Assembly (NCBI GenBank): GCA_030149205.1
Contig: JASBSB010000006.1
Span: 480,001 to 512,000, forward strand
Origin: Candidatus Heimdallarchaeota archaeon
GTDB lineage: Archaea; Asgardarchaeota; Heimdallarchaeia; Heimdallarchaeales; Kariarchaeaceae
Reading direction: 5' to 3'
DNA length: 32,000 nt
The notes beneath the pieces are model-generated. The model did no database searches. It saw nothing but the letters and a program-made list of their open reading frames with translations, and was not told the origin of the DNA. Made by a program: the position numbers and the translations under genes. Positions 612 to 23,568 of the stretch are shown here, one piece after another. Within the stretch, counting starts at the first letter, position 1. Each line of letters starts with the position of its first letter.

Positions 612-703
612 CAAAGAGGATGGAAATGATTTAGCTGTCATTTAAGAATAACAGCAATAAATAACGGACGGGTAGTCTAGCTTGGTATGATGCTGGGTTT
701 GGG

Positions 704-717
704 TAACAAATCAAAAC
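704..717 (+). other. tRNA-Pro canonical 37/38 intron (14 nt)
   Basis: Central helix TTTG(698-701)/CAAA(712-715) with bulges GG^T and AC^A; only about 1 bp of intron-side helix. Confidence 0.88.
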
Positions 718-739
718 ACCCAGTGGTCGGGGGTTCGAA

Positions 740-769
740 ACAAAGAGAACTGGCTTCTTTTTGAGAAAT
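740..769 (+). other. tRNA-Pro non-canonical T-loop 59/60 intron (30 nt)
   Basis: Central helix TTCG/AGAA (3 WC pairs plus a G.A), bulges AA^A and AT^T, 9-bp intron stem CAAAGAGAA/TTCTTTTTG. Confidence 0.85.
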
Positions 770-787
770 TCCCTCTCCGTCCATAAA

Positions 788-798
788 TTTTCTTTTTT
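788..798 (+). terminator. T-rich archaeal terminator after tRNA-Pro
   Basis: TTTTCTTTTTT begins 5 nt after A73. Confidence 0.4.
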
Positions 799-814
799 AA
801 TATACCTTCTGAAT

Positions 815-994
815 TTAATACGATGTTGCTTCTACTTTTTGTTCGCTTGAATTAGGAACCCAAAGTTCATCTTTTAAAAGATCTCGAATTGCTACACGGA
901 TAGCTTCAGATCGTGTTGGATACTTCTGTTGTCTGACAAGTTCGTCAAGACCATAAAGAAATTCATTGGGCAAATACACTGTTACAAGTTTCAT
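815..994 (-). CDS. Ribbon-helix-helix (CopG/MetJ/Arc) regulator, CdrS-like
   Basis: MKLVTVYLP...LDELV...YPTRSEAIRVAIRDLL is a classic RHH. ATG at 994 is preferred over the ORF-track start at 1012. Confidence 0.85.
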   Translation of the reverse strand: MKLVTVYLPNEFLYGLDELVRQQKYPTRSEAIRVAIRDLLKDELWVPNSSEQKVEATSY

Positions 995-1069
995 AAAATA
1001 ACTCCTAAGCACTAAAAGTGGAATTAATTATTAAAGTTGGGGGAATACTAAAGTAATATTATGGTAATT

Positions 1070-1780
1070 TCACACATATTTTTGTACAAACGCAGCAATT
1101 GATTGATCATTATCATCTAAATATGTCCTTAGGATGTTTTTGACCTTTTCTGTATCACTGAAGAGGTTATTGTCTAAGATATATCCTAAGACCTTTACGA
1201 CCTGCATTTGAACTTTATCAACCTGATTTGTTCCCAAAACCTCCAATGTATGAATTGTTTGATCTATCTGATCTGGACTCAGGGCATTCTTGTTCTTAAG
1301 CCAATTCAAGGGATCTTTTCCAAACAGAGCTTCTTGAATGAAAGCAGTTGACCAGGATGCAACCACCCTCTGCTGTAGTTCAGGTGATTTCATTTCTTCA
1401 TCTGAGTAAACCTCCTCTGTAACCTCTTCAAGGCTTTCTGGGGCTTCAGATGGTTTTAAAACCTCAGAGTTTATATCAGTATCTCCTATGGTGTTAATTG
1501 ACCCCTGCTCTTTTCCTTCCTCAAGGAAGTCATCCATCCATACAGGTCGAACTGGGGCTTCAAAATCCACAGCATCACCTACCTGCCTATGAACGGTCGG
1601 AGTCCTGATTTTGACGGATTCATGACATTCCTCACAAAAGAAATAAACCATTGTTTGTCCATGTTCTGTAGTCTCCTTGTGCATCCATTTTACTTGTGGA
1701 GAACCACATTTGTCACAAGAATCAATTTCAACTTCATCCTCAAGTAATCTTCCAAACACATCATCAGACATTGTTTTCAT
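1070..1780 (-). CDS. Hypothetical protein with N-terminal zinc ribbon, acidic linker and helical C-terminal domain
   Basis: CDKC-x23-CEEC motif; 236-aa ORF; family not recognised. Confidence 0.7.
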   Translation of the reverse strand: MKTMSDDVFGRLLEDEVEIDSCDKCGSPQVKWMHKETTEHGQTMVYFFCEECHESVKIRTPTVHRQVGDAVDFEAPVRPVWMDDFLEEGKEQGSINTIGDTDINSEVLKPSEAPESLEEVTEEVYSDEEMKSPELQQRVVASWSTAFIQEALFGKDPLNWLKNKNALSPDQIDQTIHTLEVLGTNQVDKVQMQVVKVLGYILDNNLFSDTEKVKNILRTYLDDNDQSIAAFVQKYV

Positions 1781-1848
1781 AATAGCTGTTGCCTAAATGA
1801 ATAAAAAGGTAACACATTTCTACATCAATTTCGGATAATTTTCTTCCT

Positions 1849-2952
1849 TCATTCAACATTTGAAAAGTGAATCAAAAAGGGATTTAGAAAATACAAAATA
1901 CGGTTAATATACAGCCCTTCATGGTGGGGAGGACGATTGTTTATTTTTTGTAAATTCATGAGACCAACAATTTCAAGTGCCAAATATCTGTATCTAACAT
2001 TTTTCTGGGTCGCGGCTCCTACAATCGATCTTCTTTCGGAAGAGATTTCTGTGAGAGGAAACACCTTATCAATAATTGATTTTGTGAAGTTTCCCAAATT
2101 GTCCTTAGTTGAGAAACTTAACCAATCTAATAGGTAAATATTAGGAAATAAAATCATTAGAGGTTCATCAATTGGCCTTGAACCTCTGATATTTTTTTTG
2201 TAATGACACACCATTGCTGAATTCATGAACCTCTGATAGTATCCCCCAATAAGTCTCAAAAGCATCGATATCCCTCGAATTCCCTCAGATGCAACTATAT
2301 TTTCTTTTTGATCAGGTAAATTTTTTCCAAATGTCTCCTCAAAAAAATTCGAGACGACATTCTCAATATGAGCACCAGTGACCTCAATAAGTATATTATC
2401 GATTTTATAAAACCAAAAACCTAATATGAGAAGATCAGCCGTCCTCGCAACTAGGGAATCAGGGTCTTTCCCATAAAGTGCTTCAAAAATTTGTTCAAAT
2501 GTATCTGGTGATCGTAACTTCGATTTGTTTTCTGCATGAAGTGAAAGAAACTCATCATATCTATTCTCTAACATTTTCACCCTTTTTTGTAAACCTCTAT
2601 AAACACCAGATTTATATGATTCTGGGTTTTTAAACTTTGAAGAAGAGTACTCTTCCCTACGTATGGTCTCTTGAATGATTAAGTTTTTAGCTTCTTGAAT
2701 TGGAAATCTTGATTTTAGCTTCTGTTGGATAACATATCTTAAAAATTTCTCTGGATCATATCGTAAGAATGAATTTACACCCAGCTTGTCTCTTCCTCTT
2801 AAATGAGACTGAATGGATTTTGTGATGAGCGACCTGAAATTTGATTCTGGGGTTGAATCCGACCTATCAAAAAATTTGTACCAAATGTTAGGGTAATTAT
2901 CAAATTCAATTTCCGGAACCTTAAAAAAACTCAAGTCATCCTCATTGTTCAA
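1849..2952 (-). CDS. Hypothetical protein (367 aa, TTG start)
   Basis: Long ORF co-oriented with its neighbours; no motif recognised. Confidence 0.7.
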   Translation of the reverse strand: MNNEDDLSFFKVPEIEFDNYPNIWYKFFDRSDSTPESNFRSLITKSIQSHLRGRDKLGVNSFLRYDPEKFLRYVIQQKLKSRFPIQEAKNLIIQETIRREEYSSSKFKNPESYKSGVYRGLQKRVKMLENRYDEFLSLHAENKSKLRSPDTFEQIFEALYGKDPDSLVARTADLLILGFWFYKIDNILIEVTGAHIENVVSNFFEETFGKNLPDQKENIVASEGIRGISMLLRLIGGYYQRFMNSAMVCHYKKNIRGSRPIDEPLMILFPNIYLLDWLSFSTKDNLGNFTKSIIDKVFPLTEISSERRSIVGAATQKNVRYRYLALEIVGLMNLQKINNRPPHHEGLYINRILYFLNPFLIHFSNVE

Positions 2953-2967
2953 AAATTAAAACTCCCT

Positions 2968-3459
2968 TTAGGAAATATTTTTCATTCTTTCTGCCCGACG
3001 GATCTTTGCTTGATCGAACCGGTTTTTCTCCTCCGGTGTCTCCGGAATCAATGGAGGGACTGCCATAGGTTTGTTTTGTTTATCCAAAGCTACAAAAGTA
3101 AGATAAGCAGACCCAGTCTGATGTTGAGATCCTGTTGTTAAATTTTCCACATCCACTCTAACTCCTACCTCAAGAGATGTCCGACCAGTGTAATTCACGC
3201 TGGATTTTATAATTAGTAATTCACCCACATGAACTGGATTTAAGAAGCTCATTCTATCAATTGAAGCCGTAACAACCTTTGTTCTACAGTGCCTTAATGC
3301 GACTAACCCAGCTACATTGTCAATGAGATTCAAAATTGCACCCCCATTTATCGACCCTAATTCTAATGTTCCATCCTCACTCCAACTTGGGTTGCTTTGA
3401 CCTGGCATCATTAATTGATAGGTTGTAATTGCAGTTTCACTTGGTGTTTTCCCATCCAT
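2968..3459 (-). CDS. Acyl-CoA thioesterase, hotdog fold (YciA/CACH type)
   Basis: P..SN...G.I.GG.IL.LID.VAG.VA..HC...VVTASIDRMSFLNPV.VG; YLTFVALD..KP..VPPL.PET.EE..RF..A..RR. Confidence 0.92.
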   Translation of the reverse strand: MDGKTPSETAITTYQLMMPGQSNPSWSEDGTLELGSINGGAILNLIDNVAGLVALRHCRTKVVTASIDRMSFLNPVHVGELLIIKSSVNYTGRTSLEVGVRVDVENLTTGSQHQTGSAYLTFVALDKQNKPMAVPPLIPETPEEKNRFDQAKIRRAERMKNIS

Positions 3460-3571
3460 ATATTGTGATTTTAGCTCTCGTTAAAGAGTGATTCGATATA
3501 AAATAAGACAAGTAATCAAAAGAATTTTTATTTCTAATAAACTTTAAAATTCGGGCTTAAATCAGTTTATA

Positions 3572-4273
3572 ATGTCTGATCTAAGATCAAACTCAGAAAT
3601 TTTTGATGGGGTCCACTGGATAGGGGGAGGATTTGTGAATGGGTATGTCATAGAACAAAATGATCATTTGATCCTCATTGATACACTTTTCAATAAAGCT
3701 GCAAAACAGGTGATGAAATACATCAAGACAGAGTTATCAGATAAGCCAGTTACAGAGGTCTTTCTGACACATCACCACACTGACCACGTTAATGGTTTAC
3801 ATAAAATCTACGAGCGGTATGATCCAAAAATGTACACCTCCCATGAAGATTCAAAATACATCAATGGTTCAGAAAGGCGACCTCCACCAAACATCAAGGC
3901 TTTGTCATGGTTATTTCGAATCATAGACCCATTTATTACTGGGAAACCAGTCCAAAAACTAGATTTAGTTAAAGATAAAGACGTCATTCATGATATTGAG
4001 GTAAATTCTCTCCCAGGACACACCTTAGGATCTTTAGGGTTTAGAAAATCTCAAGCTTTGTTTTTAGGTGATGCTGCAGCAGTAAATAAGAAAGGTGAGC
4101 TAACTCTTCCTACAAAATTGTTTACTGAATCATTAGAACTCTGTAAGCAGTCATTAACCAAATTGAAAAATACTGAATTTTCAATGGTTCTACCTGGACA
4201 TGGGCCACCAATCCTTGAAGATGCAAAAATGAGGTTATCCGATTTACTTGAAAAGATATATAAGGAAATTTAA
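3572..4273 (+). CDS. Metallo-beta-lactamase-fold hydrolase
   Basis: LIDT, THHHTDH (HxHxDH), PGHT.GS, GDA and PGHG motifs. Confidence 0.9.
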   Translation: MSDLRSNSEIFDGVHWIGGGFVNGYVIEQNDHLILIDTLFNKAAKQVMKYIKTELSDKPVTEVFLTHHHTDHVNGLHKIYERYDPKMYTSHEDSKYINGSERRPPPNIKALSWLFRIIDPFITGKPVQKLDLVKDKDVIHDIEVNSLPGHTLGSLGFRKSQALFLGDAAAVNKKGELTLPTKLFTESLELCKQSLTKLKNTEFSMVLPGHGPPILEDAKMRLSDLLEKIYKEI

Positions 4274-4289
4274 AATGACCTAGCCGGGA

Positions 4290-4310
4290 ATTTCATCTCA
4301 GCATTGAGAA
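4290..4310 (-). other. tRNA-Glu non-canonical T-loop 59/60 intron (21 nt)
   Basis: Perfect BHB: central helix TTCA/TGAA, bulges AA^T and AT^T, intron stem TCTCA/TGAGA. Confidence 0.9.
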
Positions 4311-4331
4311 TTTGAACCCGGGTCGATGAGG

Positions 4332-4357
4332 TTCTCTATGATGTATAAAACACCATA
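4332..4357 (-). other. tRNA-Glu canonical 37/38 intron (26 nt)
   Basis: Central helix CTTT/AGAG, bulges CA^T and AA^C, 7-bp intron stem ATGGTGT/ACATCAT. Confidence 0.9.
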
Positions 4358-4444
4358 TGAAAGCCCATTAGGATTGACCGAACTACCCCACTAGGCCATT
4401 AGTCATTCTATTGAGAATAGACTTAATTTGAGCTTCTCAACAAG

Positions 4445-4555
4445 AACTTAAAGATTTTGAAGTGTTACACGAAATCTGACAAGTGACTTTTTGCTTAGTT
4501 CAAGCTCAGTAGATATTACACGAAGAAAAATGAAACACTTCAAAACGTTTAAGTT
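4445..4555. promoter_or_regulatory. Inverted 22-bp duplicated promoter element serving divergent tRNA-Glu and tRNA-Val
   Basis: Minus copy at 4445-4466 is AACACTTCAAAATCTTTAAGTT; plus copy at 4534-4555 is AACACTTCAAAACGTTTAAGTT (20/22 identical). Each contains a TTTAAG TATA box pointing at a tRNA. Confidence 0.65.
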
Positions 4556-4585
4556 AGTAAACATCTCAAACAAAATTAGCTAACT

Positions 4586-4658
4586 AGGCGAGTGGTCTAG
4601 GGGTTATGACGCCTCGCTTACACCGAGGAGATCGGGAGTTCGATTCTCCCCTCGCCTA
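4586..4658 (+). tRNA. tRNA-Val(UAC), intronless
   Basis: Acceptor stem AGGCGAG/CTCGCCT plus A73; anticodon arm CCTCG-CT-TAC-AC-CGAGG; T-arm GGGAG-TTCGATT-CTCCC. Confidence 0.95.
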
Positions 4659-4700
4659 TTCAAATTACAAAACTTTTTATTAATTTTAATTGACTTTTAA

Positions 4701-4970
4701 TTAATCGAGATCCTCATGGTGGGAATCGTAACTATCCTTATGACCTGATTCGTAATGCCCAGAATCGTGATGACCTGATTCATAATGATCCCCATCATGG
4801 TGGTTTGTGGAGAATGAATTTCCAATTCTATCCACACTAATGTGTGGCGAGAAGTCTGTGTTTTTCTGAATAGTCATCCCAACTGCGGAGATGAGGGACA
4901 GAGAGATTATTATCCCAAGGACATGAACATACTTCGAGTTACTTACCATATTAATGTAAGCTCTAACCAC
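4701..4970 (-). CDS. Small membrane-anchored or secreted His-rich protein
   Basis: Hydrophobic segment VHVLGIIISLSLISAVG followed by a His/Asp/Ser-rich repetitive tail. The start may be the ATG at 4949. Confidence 0.6.
   Translation of the reverse strand: MVRAYINMVSNSKYVHVLGIIISLSLISAVGMTIQKNTDFSPHISVDRIGNSFSTNHHDGDHYESGHHDSGHYESGHKDSYDSHHEDLD
4741..4800. repeat. Two imperfect 30-bp tandem units encoding H-[HYK]-[DE]-S-G type pentads
   Basis: TGACCTGATTCGTAATG at 4741 and TGACCTGATTCATAATG at 4771. Confidence 0.7.
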
Positions 4971-5001
4971 TTATAAAAATGTTACCTTTATCGAGGTAAC
5001 A

Positions 5002-6270
5002 TTATTTTCTTTTAATCAAATTTCTCGTGATAAACAAAAAGATCTCGTATGCAATCATTGATTTAAGCCCTTCCAGCTCTCGGATTTTGCCATCCTTCCG
5101 AATTAAAAGTACATGGTTAGTGTCAGATTCAAATCCAGCTCCTTCGATTGATAAGTCATTGGCAACTGCTAAATCTGCATTCACCTTTTTCATTTTCTCT
5201 TTTGCGCGAGTTATAAGTTCAGTTCGGCTCACACCCCATTCTGCCTTATATACTACTAGGATGGCATCTTCATTAACTTTTTTCACATGATCTGAGATTT
5301 TTTCTGTTGGTTGAAGTTTTAATGAAAGAGATTTATCACTTTTTATCTTTCCCTCTTCTCTTTTTAGTGGAGTGAAATCAGCTACTGCTGCTGATAGAAT
5401 CACTATTGTTTGAGTTGGTGTGGTTATCTGGTCTAGAAGCACATCTAACATCTCCTTTGCACTGACAACTCTCATAGGTTCAAGAATTCTAGGAATTGGA
5501 AGGTTTGTGGGGCCAAGGATTAACGAAACCTTTGCTCCTAGTAACATTGCCTCCAGAGCAAGAGCAACTGCTGTTTTACCGCTTGCTGGGTTTGTGACAA
5601 ACCGAACATTGTCAATGTACTCTCTCGTTGGTCCTCCAGTTATAACCACTTTCTTACCCGAAAGTAACTTGGGCGTTAACAAATTAACCACCTCAAATAC
5701 AACATCATCAATAGGAGGAACCTTTGCTTTACCTTCCTCATAAATTGGGTCGATGATATGAAACCCTCTTGAACGTAGTGTGTCAAGAGAAGTTTGTACT
5801 GCATCTGCATTGACCAGATCTTGATGAGCAACACACATAATTTGAATTGGAACCTTTGCTCCTTGGAGAGAGCTGGCAATTAAGGTCACAGGAGTATCAG
5901 CAATTCCAGAGGCAAGTTTTGCCACAGTGTTAGTTGTGGCTGGAAAAATAAGCATAAGATCAACAGGATTATTCATTACTCCAGAAAATGCTATGTGTTC
6001 CAAAGCACCAGTTATTCGAGTTATTGGCTCAACTCCTGTTGCCCACCACATGAGATCTTTGCCTACCATTGTTAGAGCTGCTTCAGTCATAACCGGAATA
6101 ACCCTAGCACCCCTCCTAATCAATTCTCTTGCTAATGCAGGTGCAAGATAAGAGGCAACACTCCCGGTTATGCCAAATACTATGGTTTTATCTTCCAACC
6201 GATTTGAGATTGAAGAAAGAATCCTTAAGCTTGGATGATTAAAATGGGAGATATAATATTCTCCAGCCAT
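5002..6270 (-). CDS. coaBC: Bifunctional phosphopantothenoylcysteine decarboxylase / phosphopantothenate-cysteine ligase
   Basis: GITGSVASY flavoprotein motif, PATTNTVAKLASGIADT, TGGPTREYIDNVRFVTNPASGKTA, SAAVADF, VAND. Confidence 0.95.
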   Translation of the reverse strand: MAGEYYISHFNHPSLRILSSISNRLEDKTIVFGITGSVASYLAPALARELIRRGARVIPVMTEAALTMVGKDLMWWATGVEPITRITGALEHIAFSGVMNNPVDLMLIFPATTNTVAKLASGIADTPVTLIASSLQGAKVPIQIMCVAHQDLVNADAVQTSLDTLRSRGFHIIDPIYEEGKAKVPPIDDVVFEVVNLLTPKLLSGKKVVITGGPTREYIDNVRFVTNPASGKTAVALALEAMLLGAKVSLILGPTNLPIPRILEPMRVVSAKEMLDVLLDQITTPTQTIVILSAAVADFTPLKREEGKIKSDKSLSLKLQPTEKISDHVKKVNEDAILVVYKAEWGVSRTELITRAKEKMKKVNADLAVANDLSIEGAGFESDTNHVLLIRKDGKIRELEGLKSMIAYEIFLFITRNLIKRK

Positions 6271-6417
6271 AAATTATTATACACTGGCAATTTAAGAATT
6301 TATGGCATTTTTTAGAAGTGAAATTGTAAATTTAATGAAAAATATTTAGATTGTAATTTGAATAGTTAGGATTATTGCAAAAAAGTATTTTTATAAATCA
6401 ATTAAAAATGAAGAATA

Positions 6418-7359
6418 GTGGATTCAGAAAATTCAATTGCTTTCGTAGTCAATCCCAACAGTGGTGGAGGTAGAACTGGAAAGAATTGGGATAAAATGTA
6501 TGCCAGGATTTTGAAACAATTGAGGGCCGATTCAGGATATCAATTAGCAGATGGTATTGGTGCAGGTTATAGAATCACACAGGATCTTATGTTAGAGGGC
6601 TACAATACAATTGTACCAGTTGGGGGAGAAGGAACAGTTAATGAGGTTGTCAATGCAGTAATGAATTATAAAAATTCAAAAGCTACAAAAGTAGGGTTCA
6701 TTGTGGCTGGTACTGTAAATGATTACCAGAGAGTTATGGGATGGCCCAAGACCTTGGAAGATCAAGTAAAGCTAATTGAAGAGGGTACAATCAGGACAAC
6801 ACATTTAACCAAAACAACAGCAGATGAGGTAAGATACGCATTAAATCTTGCGGGGACTGGAATTGGATCGAAAATGGCATACGAGGCCTCAGTGCTGAGG
6901 AAACTGTTATGGTTAAAAGGTTCTCTCCGTTATAATGTGATGGCAGTTAAACATATAATCAAATGGGCTAACTTACCCGTGTCAATCAAAGCAGATGATA
7001 GTCAGATAGAAGGAGATTTATCTCTATTTACTGCGGGTTTCTCAACCCAAGTTGGAGATTTTAAAACTCAACCACATGTTAATCCATTTGGTGATAAAAT
7101 GGGATATTTAATTGCGATGAATTTTTCCAAACTGACAATGATTAAAATGCTTAAAGTCATTAAACAGGGAAAACATCAGGGGTATGATGGGATCAACTTG
7201 GGCTATGCTAAGAAAATACAACTAGAGTTTGAAGAAACACCATATTTTGATGTAGATGGAGAGGTATTTAGCTATAACACGAGAAAAGTCAAAATCGAAC
7301 CAGTCTATGATGCTATTAATATTATCTCATCAAATGGTAAAATTCAGAACACACAATGA
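6418..7359 (+). CDS. Diacylglycerol/lipid kinase family protein (YegS/DgkB-like)
   Basis: VVNPNSGGG, VGGEGTVNEVVN, AGTVND, N.AG.G and DGE motifs; GTG start. Confidence 0.88.
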   Translation: MDSENSIAFVVNPNSGGGRTGKNWDKMYARILKQLRADSGYQLADGIGAGYRITQDLMLEGYNTIVPVGGEGTVNEVVNAVMNYKNSKATKVGFIVAGTVNDYQRVMGWPKTLEDQVKLIEEGTIRTTHLTKTTADEVRYALNLAGTGIGSKMAYEASVLRKLLWLKGSLRYNVMAVKHIIKWANLPVSIKADDSQIEGDLSLFTAGFSTQVGDFKTQPHVNPFGDKMGYLIAMNFSKLTMIKMLKVIKQGKHQGYDGINLGYAKKIQLEFEETPYFDVDGEVFSYNTRKVKIEPVYDAINIISSNGKIQNTQ

Positions 7360-7369
7360 CAAACTAAGT

Positions 7370-8557
7370 TTATGTTGGTTTATACCTTGGAAGATCATGA
7401 GATAATGGTTTGTCATCTCGGTATCCTAGAGCATATCTTGCTTGAATGATTTCTTGAACTTGATCAGTTCCCTCATAAATTCTTGCACCTCTGGCGTTCC
7501 TCCAATATCTTTCGACAGGATATTCTCCAGAATAGCCGTATGATCCATGAATTTGAATTGAGTCATCCGCACACTGTGAGGCAACATTTGTGGCATGCCA
7601 TTTCGCCAACGCTGTTTCTTTTGTGTTTCTTCTTCCAACATTTTTCATCCAACCAGCTTTGTAAACCAATAACTCTGCAGTTTCTATCCCTCTGACCATA
7701 TGGGCAATTAGTCTTTGAACCAACTGATGCTGACCAATCTCAACTCCAAAAGTTTTTCTGGTTTTAGCATAAGCAACTGCAGCATCATAGGAAGCCTTTG
7801 CTAATCCTACACTTCCAGCTGCAACGGTGTATCTTCCATTGTCTAAGCAGCTCATTGCAATTTTGAATCCATCACCTTCTTTACCAACCAGGTTTGCTTT
7901 AGGAACCTCAACTTCGTCATACGTGATGAATCCTGTATTTCCTGCTCTCACACCTAACTTGTTCTTGATACTCCCGGTTGAAACACCTTTAAACTCTCTT
8001 TCAACTATAAACGCAGAAATTCCTCTGTGCCCCTTAGATTTGTCAGTATACCCAAATGTCAAAAATTGATCCGCGGTGTCTGCCAAAGAAATCCACATTT
8101 TGTTCCCAGATAAAATATATGAGTCTCCATCTTTTTTAGCGCTTGTTTCAATTGAAGCAACATCTGAACCAGCATTAGGTTCGGTTAGAGCGTAGGTCGC
8201 AATCCGTTTCCCCTGTGCTTGAGGGACAAGGTACTTCTGTTTTTGCTCTTCAGTACCCCATTGAAGCAAACCTAATGAGTTTAATCCAGTGTGAACTGAC
8301 ATGACCACTCGTAAAGATGTATCCACATACTCGAATTCTTCACTCACCAGGCCTAAGGAAATGTAATCTAAGCCTGCACCGCCATACTGTTCAGGAATAC
8401 ACACACCCAGAAAACCATTTTCACCCATCTCAAGAATTGTTTTTCTGTCATAGGTTTGATTTCTATCCATCTCAGGGATTTGGGGTGCCACACTACTAGC
8501 AAAACTCTTTGCAGATTGTCTGATTGTCTTATGTTCATCAGAAAAATCGAAATCCAT
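7370..8557 (-). CDS. Acyl-CoA dehydrogenase
   Basis: YALTEPNAGSD, LSGNKMWIS, KLGVRA, LDNGR, IQIHGSYGY, IYEGT. Confidence 0.95.
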   Translation of the reverse strand: MDFDFSDEHKTIRQSAKSFASSVAPQIPEMDRNQTYDRKTILEMGENGFLGVCIPEQYGGAGLDYISLGLVSEEFEYVDTSLRVVMSVHTGLNSLGLLQWGTEEQKQKYLVPQAQGKRIATYALTEPNAGSDVASIETSAKKDGDSYILSGNKMWISLADTADQFLTFGYTDKSKGHRGISAFIVEREFKGVSTGSIKNKLGVRAGNTGFITYDEVEVPKANLVGKEGDGFKIAMSCLDNGRYTVAAGSVGLAKASYDAAVAYAKTRKTFGVEIGQHQLVQRLIAHMVRGIETAELLVYKAGWMKNVGRRNTKETALAKWHATNVASQCADDSIQIHGSYGYSGEYPVERYWRNARGARIYEGTDQVQEIIQARYALGYRDDKPLSHDLPRYKPT

Positions 8558-8650
8558 AGTGTATATTACATAAATCAGTTTATCAGTAAATCGATTTGTA
8601 TTTGCTTTTCTAACAATTTTCTAAAAATTGTGTACCAATCTTTACAACTA

Positions 8651-8983
8651 TTAAATTTCAATGTCGATTCCAAGGGCACTTTTCACAAGTTCACGGAGAG
8701 TGCTAGTCTCTCGATCACTGTGTCCTTCTGGACCGGGGATTTCAACAACAACTGGCCATGGTCTCCTAGTTACTCTATTCAATATCATTCTGTTTAGATC
8801 TGCTAATCTTTCAGTGATGATTAAGACTGCAACATTCTCTCTATTTACAAGCTCTATTAGCTTTTCCTGACCATTACCCTCTTTGATTGAATATATTTCT
8901 TTTATCCCAGCGAGATTCAACCCAAGTGCTGTCATTTCATCTGTAATTCCAACAATTTTGGTTCTTGCTTGTCTGCTGCTCAT
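8651..8983 (-). CDS. atpF: A/V-type ATP synthase subunit F
   Basis: I.GITDE.T.LG..LAGI, VAVLIITE and PVVVEIP are characteristic of subunit F. Confidence 0.88.
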   Translation of the reverse strand: MSSRQARTKIVGITDEMTALGLNLAGIKEIYSIKEGNGQEKLIELVNRENVAVLIITERLADLNRMILNRVTRRPWPVVVEIPGPEGHSDRETSTLRELVKSALGIDIEI

Positions 8984-8992
8984 TAGTTACCA

Positions 8993-9304
8993 TCATTCCA
9001 AGACTATCTTCTTGACTGCCTCAATTACTTGAGAACGTTTGCTCTGGCTGGATTTTTGAAGCTCTTCTTTTTTTAGTTCAAATTCTGTTTGAATAGAATT
9101 AATTTGAGACTCACTTTCTTTTTCAACCTTCAGTAATAGTTGCTTCTTTTCCTCTTCTGCTTGTGATTTTGCCTTAGCTATGATCTCATTAGCTTTGGTT
9201 TCTGTTTCAGTTATAAGCTCTTCGACTTGCTTACGGGCTAGGTTTTCTTCCTCATTGATTTTTTTCTCTAAATCAAGAATTTGGTTCAGTATGTCAGAAC
9301 TCAT
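8993..9304 (-). CDS. A/V-type ATP synthase peripheral stalk subunit H(G)
   Basis: Charged all-helical 103-aa protein (ILNQILDLEK...A.EII.KAK.QAEEE) directly upstream of subunit F. Confidence 0.7.
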   Translation of the reverse strand: MSSDILNQILDLEKKINEEENLARKQVEELITETETKANEIIAKAKSQAEEEKKQLLLKVEKESESQINSIQTEFELKKEELQKSSQSKRSQVIEAVKKIVLE

Positions 9305-9381
9305 AGATATTCTCCAAATTCACTTAATCAAGTACCTATTAAAAGAAATTTGTTTGTGTGACAGAGGATTTTGAACTTAAT

Positions 9382-9870
9382 TTACTGCTTATTGTAATGT
9401 TTTACCTTAACTCCAACTCCTTTTTGAAATGAGAGAAGAGCATGCGTCGGATGATTGGAAACTCCAACTGCAAGTAAATCTCCCTGTTGATCAAGCACAA
9501 AAACCTCAGAATTGGGTTGAATCCCCTGAGAGGCTGAGCTTATATGTTTTGTGAATAAACTTTTCCCAGTAGCAACAAACGGGACTGCTTCGTCAACCGC
9601 GACCACAATATGATCTTGTAATCCAAATTTTAAGAGAAGTAGTCCTCCTTGATATGTTGGAATAAAACGCCCATCAGTGGGACGAAAACTGAAAGAGAGA
9701 GAACCATTGATATGAACGTAATTTATCCTTCCTGTCTTTTTAGAATATGATACACTAACATTACACTCTTTTACCAGTCTATTTACATCAACAGAGGGAA
9801 ATTGAAAATGCAGGATAGTGGTAAATCGAAGAATATCCAGACTTGTAGGTTCATTTAATCTCTTCAACAA
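9382..9870 (-). CDS. PUA-domain protein (stand-alone archaeal tRNA-guanine transglycosylase C2-PUA region, COG1370-like)
   Basis: QF...SKKTGRI.Y..RPTDGRF.PT..GG; V.DEAVPFV..GKS.F.KH; EV.V.D..G.LLAVG; G.GVKV. Confidence 0.8.
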   Translation of the reverse strand: MLKRLNEPTSLDILRFTTILHFQFPSVDVNRLVKECNVSVSYSKKTGRINYVHINGSLSFSFRPTDGRFIPTYQGGLLLLKFGLQDHIVVAVDEAVPFVATGKSLFTKHISSASQGIQPNSEVFVLDQQGDLLAVGVSNHPTHALLSFQKGVGVKVKHYNKQ

Positions 9871-9946
9871 TTTTTGATTTCAAGTATGTATATAAAATTT
9901 GGGACTTTTTCTGTGAAGAAGTTAATGTATATGGATAGACCTATTA

Positions 9947-10978
9947 TTATAGTGTGATTTCAGGTGTGGGAAGATGGGTTTGTTCAGAAAGTGAATATGA
10001 ATATGACAAAATAGTTGTTGATAGAATGAGGATTATTGCACCAACGTACTGAACCATAGTTAAAGGTGTGCTATTAAATAGTGGCAATAGGATGAACAAA
10101 GAGAACGGGTAAGCCAATTCAAAAATGGTTGAGACACTTGCCTTAGTTCTTTTCAAACCAAAGTAATAAATCAAAAGGGAAAGAAGTCCAACTACAATTG
10201 ATAAGTATAACAATGACGTTAGAACAGAAACGTCTGTCGATAGTTTCATTAAATTTGGAAATCCCTCTGGATTAACTGAATTAGGTATAGTAACTAACAC
10301 TGTTAAGAAAATAAAAGCAATCAGAAATCGAAAAGTTGTCATCTGCTGAAATTCGAGTTTTTGTTGACTGTGTTCTAAAAGATATCTTCCAAACACTGTT
10401 GATGCACCCCAAAGGACTGCAGCAGTTAAGCCTAATAACGCTGCTGTAACACCTAATGGATTTGAGAAATTCAATGTCACAATTGAAATTACCCCTGAAA
10501 ATGTGTTTGTTTGATTGCTCAATGAAGGGAAATTAATAAGATAGACACCAATTATCGCAACAAGTGATAAAGGAATATAATTTGAAGGAAGTTTCTCCTT
10601 TAATAATAATTTTGCAAGACCAATTGCTATGATTGGTTGGGTTTGTTGGAGCAAAACTATTACTGCAATAAATTCAAATGGTCTTCCCAAATAAAATGCT
10701 GCTGTTAATGCAATGGTAGCTAATGCACTACCACCTATCCCAATAAATAGCAATGCAAACCAATCAAAACCTGAAAATTTGCCTAAACCCCCAATGTACT
10801 TGAAAACAAGAGGAGATATGATAAGTATTATAATTAGGTGATCTACAAATACCAGTTGAATGGGGCTAATTTTCCCATTAAGCGAAGTACGAACAAAGGC
10901 ATCTGTTGTCCATAAAAACGCTGCAAAGGCGATAAATAAAGGGCCAAAGTTAAATGAAAACTTTGATTTTTCTTCCAT
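9947..10978 (-). CDS. EamA/DMT-family transporter
   Basis: About 10 TM helices in two repeats, QP.I...LA..LLKEK, ELAYP. ATG at 10978 is preferred over the ORF-track start at 11041. Confidence 0.88.
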   Translation of the reverse strand: MEEKSKFSFNFGPLFIAFAAFLWTTDAFVRTSLNGKISPIQLVFVDHLIIILIISPLVFKYIGGLGKFSGFDWFALLFIGIGGSALATIALTAAFYLGRPFEFIAVIVLLQQTQPIIAIGLAKLLLKEKLPSNYIPLSLVAIIGVYLINFPSLSNQTNTFSGVISIVTLNFSNPLGVTAALLGLTAAVLWGASTVFGRYLLEHSQQKLEFQQMTTFRFLIAFIFLTVLVTIPNSVNPEGFPNLMKLSTDVSVLTSLLYLSIVVGLLSLLIYYFGLKRTKASVSTIFELAYPFSLFILLPLFNSTPLTMVQYVGAIILILSTTILSYSYSLSEQTHLPTPEITL

Positions 10979-11084
10979 ATTGTCAATGGAGAATATCGGT
11001 ACAAAAACATTCAGATTATTTATCTTGTAAATTTCAAGCAAGTTTTAATGGGAAAAAATCAGTTTGGACACAAATTATATTCTC

Positions 11085-11750
11085 TTAGATGGAATCGAGT
11101 TTCTCTAAAGCTTTTAAGAGTTCTTCATTATCTTTATCGGTAGTTGGAACTTCAGGAAGTTCAGTTTTCTCCGGACTCTTTTGTGTGCTGGTTTCTTTGC
11201 TAGGTACTGTCTGTGGTGATGGGATAGTCCTTGATAGAGGGGGAGAGACAGGTACACTAGCTGTAGGTTTAGGGATACTGCTGCTTTTAGTAGGAGCAGG
11301 GGGTATAGAAGCAGTAATTGGTGCAGGTTTTGGGGCTACTGATTCAGTCTTTCTCTCTGGAACTGGGGTTGAAGGTATTGAATGATGTGAGATTGGAGTA
11401 GGAATATCAGGATTAACTTTTTGCGGGGTTATGGTACGTTCAATGCTAGACTTTGACTGTTGGACAAGGTCTTCAAGCTTTTTCTCTAATATGGAAACTT
11501 TTTCATTCAACCCTTTCAGATCCGTCTGAGTGGATTGTGCTGCACCTTTTTCCATTCTTATAATTTGATCCTTCATCTGTGTTATTTCTTGGTTGAAACT
11601 GTTTAACCTCTCATCAAGTTCTGCAAATTTTAGACTAACTTGTTCTCTTAACTTATCTATATTTTGAACAATAAATTTTAATGTCCTTTTAATCGGACTT
11701 GCTTCATCAGACACTAAATAGTTTAGGTGATTACTGTTATTAAACTTCAC
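11085..11750 (-). CDS. Hypothetical coiled-coil protein with proline-rich linker and short C-terminal amphipathic helix
   Basis: Heptad-like region about aa 20-100, P/S/T-rich region about aa 105-200, ends NEELLKALEKLDSI. GTG start is uncertain. Confidence 0.75.
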   Translation of the reverse strand: MKFNNSNHLNYLVSDEASPIKRTLKFIVQNIDKLREQVSLKFAELDERLNSFNQEITQMKDQIIRMEKGAAQSTQTDLKGLNEKVSILEKKLEDLVQQSKSSIERTITPQKVNPDIPTPISHHSIPSTPVPERKTESVAPKPAPITASIPPAPTKSSSIPKPTASVPVSPPLSRTIPSPQTVPSKETSTQKSPEKTELPEVPTTDKDNEELLKALEKLDSI

Positions 11751-11964
11751 GTTTTATGTGTAGACTAGCTCATTTTAGGTGGTGTTCTCAAATTTTAAAG
11801 TAATTTATGTGGATTAAACTTCATCTCATAATGACAGACTAACTGAATTGGTACTTCCCAAGAAAAAAATACGGTTGAATATGAAGGGCAGAAATATAAA
11901 TTAATTAGGTGAAAAATTTATTGATTATTACGACACCTAGGTAAATAAATTTCAATTAAATCTC

Positions 11965-12372
11965 TCAGGTGGTCAGAGATAATAGAGCATCAGCTAAATC
12001 TCCTTTAGATTTTATTAAAGCTTCACGTGCCTGTTCTGGTGAAACTGATGCTTTATCACTTATAAATTTAACATCTGCATCTGACACTTCAATTTCAACA
12101 ACCTCCTCTTGACTGGTATCTGTATCCAAAGAAGTTTCCCTAACATTACTGGTTGTAATTGTATAGATCTCCTGCCCGCTCATCTTTAAAATTTGTACAG
12201 TTGCATCAGTTAAAATAATTTGTGAGTCTGATTTTTTGATAATGACTTCTTTGACGTCATCAACCTCTTTGACATCCATCTGGTTCATAGCCTGTTTCAT
12301 ACCTTTTTGGGACATTCCGGGAATGTTTTGATTTCTTTTTGCTGCCCTTCTGGCTTTTCTTCTTGCGCTCAT
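11965..12372 (-). CDS. nac: Nascent polypeptide-associated complex protein (NAC domain plus UBA domain)
   Basis: MKQAMNQM.V.E..DV.EVII; C-terminal D.DVKFI..KA.VS.E.AREAL....GDLA.AL..L. Confidence 0.92.
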   Translation of the reverse strand: MSARRKARRAAKRNQNIPGMSQKGMKQAMNQMDVKEVDDVKEVIIKKSDSQIILTDATVQILKMSGQEIYTITTSNVRETSLDTDTSQEEVVEIEVSDADVKFISDKASVSPEQAREALIKSKGDLADALLSLTT

Positions 12373-12426
12373 AATTTAGAATTTTCGTATCATAAATAAA
12401 TTGTTTTGTTTTGTATAATCAAGAGA

Positions 12427-12516
12427 TGCGCAATGCGGGAATTTCGGAGACAATCCTCTATCGAACCCGCTCCCTAAGCTTGGGAAGCTCATGTGCTACC
12501 ACTACACTAATTGCGC
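12427..12516 (-). tRNA. tRNA-Gly(CCC) with a T-loop 59/60 intron
   Basis: Acceptor stem GCGCAAT/ATTGCGC plus A73; TGAGC-TT-CCC-AA-GCTTA; T-stem GCGGG/CCCGC. The mature form is 71 nt. Confidence 0.93.
12441..12459 (-). other. tRNA-Gly non-canonical T-loop 59/60 intron (19 nt)
   Basis: Perfect BHB: central helix TTCG/CGAA, bulges AT^A and AT^T, intron stem GAGG/TCTC. Confidence 0.9.
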
Positions 12517-12565: not shown

Positions 12566-14608
12566 TCAATTTTTATAGGTTTTTGGTGTAAGTATTTGCT
12601 TATCTTTTACTTTCGTTTCCTTAGGTGTGTGAACCATGATTTTTTCTCCCTCAAAATCATCTAATATAGAATTCAACGTGGGGGATGATGTGTGTCCACT
12701 AAGCTTTAGGCGATCAATGTCTTGCTTGAAATTTAAACCTGATTTTTTGTTTAATAACGCAAATCCAAGACTTGTAGGGGCTTGATATCCAGTAAATAAT
12801 ATACTGGTGTTTGGATCATCTTTAGTTGCCTCTGCTAAACCTCTGGCTGTACCTGCTTGTAGCATACCATGACCACCTATTACTATAGTTTTCTCTATAA
12901 ATTCATCAGGCCTTACAGTTCTGTTCAAACTTAATTGTTTTTTTAATAATGGAGTTGTTTCAAACTGATAACGCAACTTTTTCATAACTGTCGATCCCAT
13001 ACCTGTAATTTTGATTTTCCAGTCTTTAGGGACCCCAGTTTTTATCAATTGATATAGTACCTCCTGAGTTCGTCCTACTGAAAATGCAGGAATCAGGATC
13101 TTATCATATGATTGAAACTTAGATTTAAGTTTATCAGAGTTGGACACTTCATTTGATTCTGCTTTATTGTAATAAGTTCCATCAAAGATAAGTTTTGTTG
13201 CATTATCCAATGGAACTTTTGCCCCAGGAAAAATTACTGTTCCATCTGCATTAAAATCACCAGTATAAATTATACTTTTGTTTCCAATTTTTATTTCAAA
13301 CATAGATGATCCAAATAAATGGGAGGCATTATGTGGAATAATCTCAACATTTGGAAGGATATTTATGCTCTGACCATATTCTATCTCAATGGTTTGATCT
13401 AGTGTATTAAGAATGTTAGATTTGTTAGTCAAATTCGACAGTGTCTTAGAGTTTTTGACAACCTGTTTAGAATAAACTTTCTTCAAAATATTTGCTGTGT
13501 CATTCCACAACATTTCTGAAATTACCTTGGTTTCCTTTGTCATAAACACTGGTAGATTCTTTTGCTCTAAAAATAATAGAGGTAAGGCACCAGAATGATC
13601 AAGATGTGCATGTGATACAAAAACTGCATCTAATCCTTCCAAGTAAGGTAGCCAGTTTGGAATGCTGTTGTTAACAACGCTCATCCCAAAATCAAACAAT
13701 AGCAATCCTGAATTAGTTTTAATAAGAATTGATGAGTGCCCAATGTGGGAACCACCAGGGAAATATATTTTTATCTGTTCTAAAACTTCAGGTCTTGAAA
13801 AAACAAACTTAGGGATCAGATCCATAGCGATTTTTGGTGGAAAATTACTTGCAATGTCTCCATCTAGTGAAACCTTTGGTAGTTTGGAGAGTTTATCACC
13901 AAACACTCTGAAAGACGGGGGAAAATCTTTTAAGAGTGTATCACTTGAATTAATTTTCTTGTACAATTCCTCCCATGAGGTTGAAGTAGGAAGGGAACTT
14001 ACACTTTCGGTAATCATATGTTTAATCAACTGTGATTTTACTGGTGCATCAACCCAATCAGTCAATTCAGACAGAAATTGTTGAGAATATTCATTGAGAT
14101 GTTCAAAAAATACACTCGGTTTGGTTCTCAGAAGTTTTTGAGACCTCGAAATCTTCTGATAGTGTGATATTGTTTGAGAATCTACCTCTGCATGCGTGTA
14201 CTCTTGCAAGTAATAAATTAATTCCTCTGGATTTGGATATCCTATATTAAGTAAATCTCGTAAACTCAATGCAGATTTCATAAGTTCAGCTACTGTAGTG
14301 ACAGACTCAATAAAATAAAAAATGAATACTGTGTTCACTCCATCCAGAAGACCTTTGGAATATATTTGACGTGTTAAACCAATAAATTCATCATCTGAAA
14401 TTTGATCGGAATATTTTTTGTAGTACATAAATTTAGGAATAAACGAGCTATATTCAATTTCATCATTTTGAACTAACCAAAGTAAGTCATTCATATTTTT
14501 TATAAATTCAATATCAAGCTCATGAGGGATGTGTTCATTGTTTTTTCCATTTGCTATCAAGCTAATTATTGAGTGATACAAAGGATTTTCTATCTCATTT
14601 AAATTCAC
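12566..14608 (-). CDS. Beta-CASP metallo-beta-lactamase ribonuclease (aCPSF/CPSF73-like) with an approximately 275-aa N-terminal extension
   Basis: GG..IG.S.IL, DFG, HAHLDH, SH.FGS, TGDFN, DGTY, PAFSVGRTQE, TGYQ, SGH and VH motifs. Confidence 0.85.
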   Translation of the reverse strand: MNLNEIENPLYHSIISLIANGKNNEHIPHELDIEFIKNMNDLLWLVQNDEIEYSSFIPKFMYYKKYSDQISDDEFIGLTRQIYSKGLLDGVNTVFIFYFIESVTTVAELMKSALSLRDLLNIGYPNPEELIYYLQEYTHAEVDSQTISHYQKISRSQKLLRTKPSVFFEHLNEYSQQFLSELTDWVDAPVKSQLIKHMITESVSSLPTSTSWEELYKKINSSDTLLKDFPPSFRVFGDKLSKLPKVSLDGDIASNFPPKIAMDLIPKFVFSRPEVLEQIKIYFPGGSHIGHSSILIKTNSGLLLFDFGMSVVNNSIPNWLPYLEGLDAVFVSHAHLDHSGALPLLFLEQKNLPVFMTKETKVISEMLWNDTANILKKVYSKQVVKNSKTLSNLTNKSNILNTLDQTIEIEYGQSINILPNVEIIPHNASHLFGSSMFEIKIGNKSIIYTGDFNADGTVIFPGAKVPLDNATKLIFDGTYYNKAESNEVSNSDKLKSKFQSYDKILIPAFSVGRTQEVLYQLIKTGVPKDWKIKITGMGSTVMKKLRYQFETTPLLKKQLSLNRTVRPDEFIEKTIVIGGHGMLQAGTARGLAEATKDDPNTSILFTGYQAPTSLGFALLNKKSGLNFKQDIDRLKLSGHTSSPTLNSILDDFEGEKIMVHTPKETKVKDKQILTPKTYKN

Positions 14609-22929: not shown

Positions 22930-23568
22930 ATGGTTGATGATTCTGTCCTTAGTGAGGAAGCAGGATATATCTATTCAAATTCCACTGGATTTGAACCAGT
23001 TAAAGGGAATTTATTAAGATGGGAAGGGATCCTTTCTGATTCTACTGGAACTTTGGTAAAAGTTTATGTTGACATACCTGATAACTTTCCAGATATTCCT
23101 CCAAGTATAACTATTGACCCATCTTATTCAACTCCAATAACTGACGCACAAGGAAAGCTATACACGAGAAGTATGAGAAGATGGAGACGAGGAATGCATG
23201 TACATCAAATATTAAAGGAGGTTGAGCTCCTGTTAAAACAGGTTAAAACCACAGGAAATGAAGAAACACAAAAATATCAAAATGCAATTCTATCGCATGA
23301 AAATTCACTTCAACGTCAAATAAACCAACTCAAAGAAAGAATTCAAACTAAACAGGTTGAGTTATCTTCTATCAAATCAAATTCACAACCTGTAACTCAG
23401 TTGACATCTGATGTCCTAAAACAATCTATGTCTGAAATTGAGGCAGAACTGTTTAGTTTGGAAGACGAATATGACAAAATCGAAATTTCTGATACTGAGT
23501 TTGCAAGAAAATTCGTAAGGCTCCGTAAAAAATATTACCTAATTGAAAGTGCAGTTACCTCAAGATAG
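22930..23568 (+). CDS. UEV (inactive E2-like) / coiled-coil / steadiness-box protein, TSG101/Vps23-Vps37-like (ESCRT-I)
   Basis: UBC-fold pattern W.G, IP..FP..PP, DAQGKLY, W...H..QIL..V..LL; no Cys in the protein; coiled coil; C-terminal L.DEY....IS..EF..KF..LRKKYY. Confidence 0.72.
   Translation: MVDDSVLSEEAGYIYSNSTGFEPVKGNLLRWEGILSDSTGTLVKVYVDIPDNFPDIPPSITIDPSYSTPITDAQGKLYTRSMRRWRRGMHVHQILKEVELLLKQVKTTGNEETQKYQNAILSHENSLQRQINQLKERIQTKQVELSSIKSNSQPVTQLTSDVLKQSMSEIEAELFSLEDEYDKIEISDTEFARKFVRLRKKYYLIESAVTSR

Follow-up and report, generated by a model that had tools for sequence, protein, structure and literature searches.

Archaeal tRNA introns with bulge-helix-bulge (BHB) motifs at non-canonical positions were reportedly described by Marck and Grosjean in 2003 and by Sugahara in 2008. 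A later review lists 59/60 among the non-canonical intron positions of archaeal tRNA genes (Yoshihisa 2014, PMC4090602), and it also summarizes the intron 'transposition' among tRNA genes of the Thermoproteales (Fujishima 2010). Within the Asgard archaea, Valentin-Alvarado et al. (2024) found introns in 92-95% of the tRNA genes of Atabeyarchaeia and Freyarchaeia, often non-canonical and multiple (PMC11291895). According to our reading of their Supplementary Data 4, the last intron in Atabeyarchaeia-1 ends 17 nucleotides (nt) before the annotated 3′ end in about 10 of 40 genes and 14 nt before it in two genes, and both sets fall in the T-loop region. A 2026 bioRxiv census reports that called Asgard introns are concentrated at 37/38 and in the T-arm, treats the splicing endonuclease EndA as a permissive background, and states that the route by which introns arrive is unknown (10.64898/2026.10.13.758758). 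Here, we analyze a 32,000-nt stretch of contig JASBSB010000006.1 (the window, from whose first letter positions are counted), in which the tRNA-Pro, tRNA-Glu and tRNA-Gly genes are interrupted within the T-loop, at position 59/60, together with the genome to which it belongs.

The window contains four tRNA genes, three of them T-loop-interrupted. By hand parsing, the tRNA-Pro(TGG) gene (666-783, + strand) carries two introns: a canonical 14-nt intron at 37/38 (704-717), whose BHB has a central helix of 4 base pairs (bp), an outer helix of 6 bp and an inner helix of 1 bp, and a 30-nt intron at 59/60 (740-769), bounded by a 5-bp T-stem and containing an inner hairpin of 9 bp with a 5-nt loop. 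The tRNA-Glu(TTC) gene (4276-4397, - strand), likewise parsed by hand, also carries two. Its canonical 37/38 intron of 26 nt (4332-4357) has a central helix of 4 bp including one G-U pair, an outer helix of 5 bp and an inner helix counted as a run of 7 by the scan and as a 6-bp stem by hand; its 59/60 intron of 21 nt (4290-4310) is a strict hBHBh′ motif (outer helix h, intron helix h′) with the central helix TTCA/TGAA, the bulges AA|T and AT|T, and an inner stem of 5 bp. The tRNA-Gly(CCC) gene (12427-12516, - strand) carries a single 19-nt intron at 59/60 (12441-12459), again a strict hBHBh′ motif, with TTCG/CGAA, bulges AT|A and AT|T, and an inner stem of 4 bp. Here, the hand parse is joined by an Rfam tRNA score of 56.3 bits, and the Rfam alignment leaves a 21-nt unaligned block within the T-loop. 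An alternative cut in tRNA-Gly, removing 21 nt with a junction at 55/56, was ruled out because it leaves a 5-nt T-loop. The fourth gene, tRNA-Val(TAC) (4585-4659, + strand), is uninterrupted, is called by ARAGORN and by the Rfam tRNA model (65 bits), and acts as an internal control.

We placed each cut behind the second base of its 3-nt bulge; the central helix then forms between positions 54-57 and the four intron bases standing just before the final two. Cleavage after the second bulge base is the established rule for BHB motifs, and it fits the anticodon-intron pair of the canonical introns. Removing the inserts restores 7-nt T-loops (TTCGAAT in Pro, TTCAAAT in Glu and TTCGATT in Gly) and a cloverleaf that ARAGORN can call, with mature lengths of 74 nt for Pro(tgg) and 77 nt for Glu(ttc). 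The predicted exon junctions are GGTTCGAA-TCCCTC (Pro), GGTTCAAA-TCCCGG (Glu) and GGTTCGAT-TCCCGC (Gly). The first-pass annotation of this DNA, made from its letters, had placed inserts of 30, 21 and 19 nt at exactly 59/60 in Pro, Glu and Gly, all ending in GAAAT followed by T60, and had proposed that each folds as a BHB with unrelated inner stems; direct reading of the sequence bears this description out in full. The motif with its 54-57 central helix is perfect in Glu and Gly, while in Pro it consists of T54-T55-C56 paired with GAA plus a G57.A mismatch (3 bp). The inner stems (9 bp in Pro, 5 bp in Glu and 4 bp in Gly) have no sequence in common.

That these introns extend beyond the window, as was also proposed, is borne out by the whole genome (3.31 Mb, 12 contigs, 35% G+C, 93.5% complete). 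We scanned both strands for BHB geometry, spliced each of approximately 243,000 candidates in silico and passed the products to ARAGORN. The splicing scan rescued 24 tRNA genes, with the junction at 59/60 in all 24. A whole-genome filter for T-loop-like sites yielded no further convincing uncalled site, and for introns at other non-canonical positions the genome-wide BHB scan returned only canonical-site matches or spurious long 'introns'. Anticodons in the final catalogue were re-derived by the BHB rule, replacing the intron-mode ARAGORN anticodons of several genes ('Stop', two 'SeC', 'Phe aaa', and 'Lys ttt' for Gln TTG), which were wrong or ambiguous. One gene, tRNA-Trp(CCA), was solved in ARAGORN's intron mode only and not by the two-step solver. 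The catalogue holds 45 tRNA genes, each single-copy, corresponding to 45 of the 46 usual archaeal anticodon classes. The sole usual class not found in it is tRNA-Arg(CCG), which may lie in the unassembled portion of the genome (about 6%) or be disrupted in a form that the scan misses.

Introns in the catalogue occupy two positions only, 37/38 and 59/60. The 59/60 site is interrupted in 24 of the 45 genes (53%) by introns of 17-30 nt (median 20.5), and the 37/38 site in 26 genes; 12 genes are interrupted at both sites and 7 at neither. Altogether, 38 genes (84%) are interrupted by 50 introns, or 1.1 per gene, with none in the D-arm. After splicing, mature tRNAs measure 71-78 nt (83-88 nt in class II), and these normal lengths imply that no insertion of 10 nt or more is hidden elsewhere in the tRNAs. 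No intronless duplicate exists for any of the 24, which include the sole genes for Trp, Asn, Asp and all Gly, Glu, Gln and Leu tRNAs. No anticodon served by an interrupted gene has a second gene, and the introns must therefore be removed; intact spare copies, named beforehand as the observation that would speak against splicing, are absent from the assembled genome for all 24. On the raw sequence of the window, ARAGORN detects none of the three interrupted genes and the Rfam tRNA model detects one (Gly), and across the raw genome each finds just 22-23 tRNA genes. The expectation that standard scanners overlook such genes is borne out for ARAGORN and the Rfam model only; tRNAscan-SE does search for introns of this kind.

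To quantify the structure of the site, we aligned the 24 T-arm-plus-intron segments of the genome (alignment A1). Base pairing occupies 97.7% of its pair cells, compared to 74.1% when shuffled (none of 500 shuffles reached the observed value), and sliding the partner by 1-3 columns reduces pairing to 41-63%. The covariation score is 0.571 versus 0.135. The R57:Y pair covaries (A-U in 15 genes, G-C in 7, and an unpaired G.A in 2), and both sides vary in all four of the inner-stem pairs that were modeled. The outer helix h, which is the 5-bp T-stem, is fully paired in 24 of 24 segments, and the intron helix h′ ranges from 2 to 9 bp. A strict BHB is formed in 22 of the 24, and the remaining two, Pro(TGG) and Leu(TAA), form a relaxed version with 3 bp and a G.A mismatch. 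A covariance model built from A1 (model R1) finds exactly the same 24 places in the genome and no others. The pairing pattern at 59/60 is thus far beyond chance.

We consider it very probable that the inserts are ordinary archaeal protein-spliced BHB tRNA introns at a non-canonical position, removed by a two-subunit EndA and the ligase RtcB. In the precursor, the T-stem (49-53/61-65) would stack on a 4-bp helix between the near-invariant U54-U55-C56-R57 and the intron's YGAA. Two 3-nt bulges (A58-N59-i1 and A-N-U60) would flank this central helix, and a variable intron hairpin would close the structure. We infer that EndA cuts both bulges behind their second base, after which RtcB joins the halves and a normal 7-nt T-loop is restored. 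Because the exon half of the 59/60 BHB (the T-stem and UUCR-A) is near-universal, one intron design should fit any tRNA: an intron of the form N-hairpin-YGAA-AN could be spliced wherever it sits, whereas a 37/38 intron must pair with each tRNA's own anticodon loop. The near-universal exon half plausibly explains why the 59/60 site recurs.

The genome encodes the enzymes that this splicing would need. RtcB is present, and the EndA domains PF01974 and PF02778 each occur in two copies. The EndA paralogue on contig 4, at about 500.3-500.8 kb, has as its best match the catalytic alpha subunit of Aeropyrum pernix (3P1Z_B, E value 3e-31), and residues 46-198 of the query align gap-free to residues 18-170 of 3P1Z_B, spanning the crenarchaeal-specific (L1) loop. 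Its 216-amino-acid frame retains the Tyr/His/Lys residues and has K72 at the position of A. pernix K44, a lysine that mutagenesis has shown to be needed to cut both standard and non-standard sites (PMC3241643). The paralogue on contig 2, at about 623.3-623.8 kb, resembles the Methanocaldococcus jannaschii and Methanopyrus kandleri proteins and has Ser where the catalytic His of the M. jannaschii enzyme aligns, which fits a structural beta subunit. A search of genome contigs with the alpha subunit returned no relative, and a protein-atlas search with EndA recovered the family without an informative taxon. [quoted passage not shown] An Asgard (alpha-beta)2 EndA with the L1 loop has been published previously (PMC5829648).

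Several observations weigh against this account of the inserts. Minimum free energy folding produces the full BHB for Gly only, one of the three window genes; in Pro and Glu, the T-stem and the inner hairpin form and the A/U-rich central helix stays open. The G.A mismatch in the central helix of Pro(TGG) and Leu(TAA) calls for a tolerant enzyme, and the broad specificity of EndA is inferred from homology only.

The source organism is, judging by its proteins, an Asgard archaeon, in accordance with the first-pass annotation. The RpoA′ protein encoded in the window is 65-67% identical to those of metagenome-assembled genomes named 'Ca. Heimdallarchaeota', with Borr-, Thor- and Hodarchaeota lower in the list of matches. 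A 212-amino-acid open reading frame (22930-23568, + strand) weakly matches the UBC/UEV and Vps37 (Mod_r) profiles and is ESCRT-I-like. ESCRT-I-like proteins are eukaryotic signature proteins typical of Asgard archaea. In the same part of the window, the RNA polymerase A″ gene (24944-27511, - strand) contains an intein (PF14890, E value 6.5e-20) inside Rpb1 domain 5, and in the congener G002 a gap of about 1.5 kb interrupts the RpoA′ match inside a single 1422-amino-acid open frame, hinting at another intein there. A 680-amino-acid metallo-beta-lactamase/beta-CASP protein of the aCPSF-like RNA nuclease family is encoded immediately upstream of tRNA-Gly (12566-14608, - strand).

We then used model R1 to count T-loop introns in other genomes; it was trained on the window genome's short introns and applied with strict filters, and its counts elsewhere are lower bounds. 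The window genome has 24 matches, the highest count seen, and its congeners have 11 (G002), 1 (G001) and 1 (G003). Among 46 other genomes of the order, at least one match occurs in 17; counts outside the genus range from 0 to 6 (6 each in G008 and G040, 5 in three others), and the largest genus mostly has none. Of 150 other Asgard genomes sampled, 101 gave one match or more, usually 1-8 and at most 13. The number of tRNA genes detectable by Rfam, which is 22 here, 26 in G002, 38 in G001, 36 in G003, 36 in G008 and 40 in G015, is an independent measure that agrees with the R1 counts. Consequently, the proposal of a lineage-wide expansion holds only loosely: the site itself is used across the phylum, and its density is specific to this species. 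T-loop introns of more distant relatives occur in Ser GCT, Trp, Pro TGG and Ala CGC (G008) and in Ala GGC, Thr GGT and Glu CTC (G015). At the loci solved in G008, G013 and G015 (L176-L189), they are uniform in size (27-36 nt, mostly 31), and those of the window genome are mostly 17-23 nt, as if shortened relative to them.

Two ways to arrive at such a density were weighed: introns may have accumulated recently in this lineage through many gains, or they may be ancestral and have been lost elsewhere. Synteny searches for orthologous loci in the congeners returned only patchy DNA matches of 65-77%, and we therefore compared the genomes by isoacceptor. To the first alternative we assign an even chance. 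It is favored by the R1 counts (24 for the window genome; 11, 1 and 1 for its congeners; 0-6 elsewhere in the order), which the Rfam-detectable tRNA genes mirror (22 here against 26, 38 and 36 in the congeners). Among 32 tRNA genes compared in G001, the T-loop is intact in Gly GCC/TCC/CCC, Pro TGG, Thr GGT, Ala CGC/GGC, Gln CTG/TTG, Ser GGA/GCT, Leu TAA/TAG, Arg TCT and Val CAC, and all of these 15 isoacceptors except Val CAC carry a 59/60 intron in the window genome. Ten 59/60 introns were solved in G002, in Leu CAG/TAA/GAG, Gly CCC/TCC/GCC, Ser GCT, Met, Asp and Arg CCG; where the isoacceptor is shared with the window genome, the introns differ in length (29-30 nt versus 19-30 nt) and in sequence. 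The 2026 census, moreover, inferred many terminal-branch gains in Asgard archaea (10.64898/2026.10.13.758758). Three points temper the case for gains. The genus tree, built from one protein, does not resolve the branching and places the window genome on the longest branch; it does not tell gain here from loss in the congeners. The congeners' RpoA′ proteins are only 84-85% identical to that of the window genome, a distance at which unconstrained intron sequence would be saturated anyway. Finally, the inner introns of the window genome are no more alike than shuffled sequences, giving no sign of a very recent burst of copying.

The second alternative, that the T-loop introns date back to the ancestor of the genus or family, with precise deletion removing most of them from the congeners, is in our judgment possible and somewhat doubtful. 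It draws on the phylum-wide use of 59/60 and on its presence in relatives at the family and order levels (G008 and G015) in overlapping isoacceptors, and also on the first six introns solved in G002, five of which lie in isoacceptors that are interrupted in the window genome too. However, it demands that G001 and G003 each lost more than 20 introns precisely, although their close relative G002 keeps 11. The related introns of about 30 nt in G002 also point to recent spread rather than old retention.

This relatedness bears on how introns accumulate, if gain is the correct direction. In the window genome, the mean similarity of the inner introns is -0.460 compared to -0.469 for shuffled introns, and 129 of 500 shuffles are as high; this speaks against a recent single-source burst among its 24 introns, and the proposal that inner stems are unrelated extends from the window to the genome. 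Limited resemblances remain. The sequence pattern ATC...GATGAAA is common to seven introns. The Pro(TGG) intron (740-769) and the Leu(TAA) intron (G000:C4:455919-455948) are both 30 nt long, start with ACAA and end with TTGAGAAA, and no other intron among the 24 has the G57.A mismatch, a likeness that suggests a common origin in two unrelated tRNAs. The introns of G002 behave differently. Its ten solved introns (L165-L170, L192-L195) reside in ten different tRNAs, nine are 29-30 nt long and one is 22 nt, and their similarity is -0.015 compared to -0.272 when shuffled (standard deviation 0.022; none of 500 shuffles as high). Between the Leu(CAG) and Leu(TAA) genes of G002, 51 of 53 positions are identical across the T-arm and intron, and the 5′ two-thirds have diverged; the shared segment looks like a conversion tract that copied an intron from one tRNA gene to another.

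Tentatively, then, 59/60 may be a universal and self-sufficient landing site, into which hairpins ending in YGAA-AN spread between unrelated tRNAs by way of conversion tracts on the shared T-arm. Candidate traces of such spread are the Leu pair of G002, the family of introns of about 30 nt in at least nine G002 tRNAs, and the likeness between Pro(TGG) and Leu(TAA). If true, T-arm conversion would yield bursts at the level of species (24 versus 1 within one genus), and it would offer a specific path by which introns arrive, a question that the 2026 Asgard census did not settle.

It is very improbable that the inserts instead stay in the RNA, as pseudogenes or tolerated T-loop expansions, when all 24 genes are the only ones for their anticodons (Trp, Asn, Asp and all Gly, Glu, Gln and Leu among them), when the BHB is maintained by compensatory changes, and when the conserved T-loop/D-loop fold of tRNA excludes a T-loop of 24-37 nt.

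Read as spliced BHB introns, the T-loop inserts have practical and evolutionary consequences. For annotation, half of the genome's tRNA genes are invisible to simple scanners, which would make the genome look translationally incomplete. For the study of tRNA intron gain and loss, the genus offers a clean natural series from the prokaryotes nearest to eukaryotes: a single non-canonical site holds 24 introns that look independent here, compared to 11, 1 and 1 in the congeners. The first-pass annotation's remark that 59/60 falls inside the eukaryotic Pol III B-box, which may bear on why eukaryotes mostly lack such introns, is sensible on textbook grounds. The site is not new, a question that the first-pass annotation had left to the literature: 59/60 is listed among known positions (PMC4090602), and the Asgard load of 37/38 and T-arm introns has been published (PMC11291895; 10.64898/2026.10.13.758758). 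The finding is an extreme and unusually stereotyped case of a known phenomenon, and it reveals no new mechanism.

Comparison with described systems locates the case more closely. In the red alga Cyanidioschyzon merolae (Soma 2013, PMC3728597) and in nucleomorphs, tRNA genes also have multiple non-canonical introns, including T-arm introns, that are spliced by way of BHB-like motifs; those genes are nuclear and eukaryotic, as is the endonuclease that serves them, and the resemblance implies no relation by descent. The non-canonical BHB introns of archaea (PMC4090602) share with the present introns the same architecture (3-nt bulge, 4-bp helix, 3-nt bulge), the position, the co-occurrence with 37/38 introns and the enzyme type. 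In the Thermoproteales, however, introns are scattered over many positions, whereas the window genome uses only 37/38 and 59/60, the latter in 53% of its genes. The 'transposition' of introns in Thermoproteales is resembled by the congener G002, with its alike introns in different tRNAs and its Leu pair, and is not seen in the window genome, whose 24 inner introns are mutually unrelated. Also close are the Asgard lineages reported in 2024 and 2026. Like the window genome, they have most of their tRNA genes interrupted (84% here), introns at 37/38 and in the T-arm, and two EndA paralogues, and they have gained introns repeatedly, often on terminal branches. In contrast, their load is about 2.2 intervening sequences per gene, spread over many positions with many in the D-arm, compared to 1.1 per gene, none in the D-arm and a single non-canonical site here. 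The window genome also appears to belong to a different, Heimdall-labelled group from these heavily interrupted lineages. It does not display the published 'heavily interrupted' phenotype of Asgard archaea, and presents instead a related form that is milder and more stereotyped.

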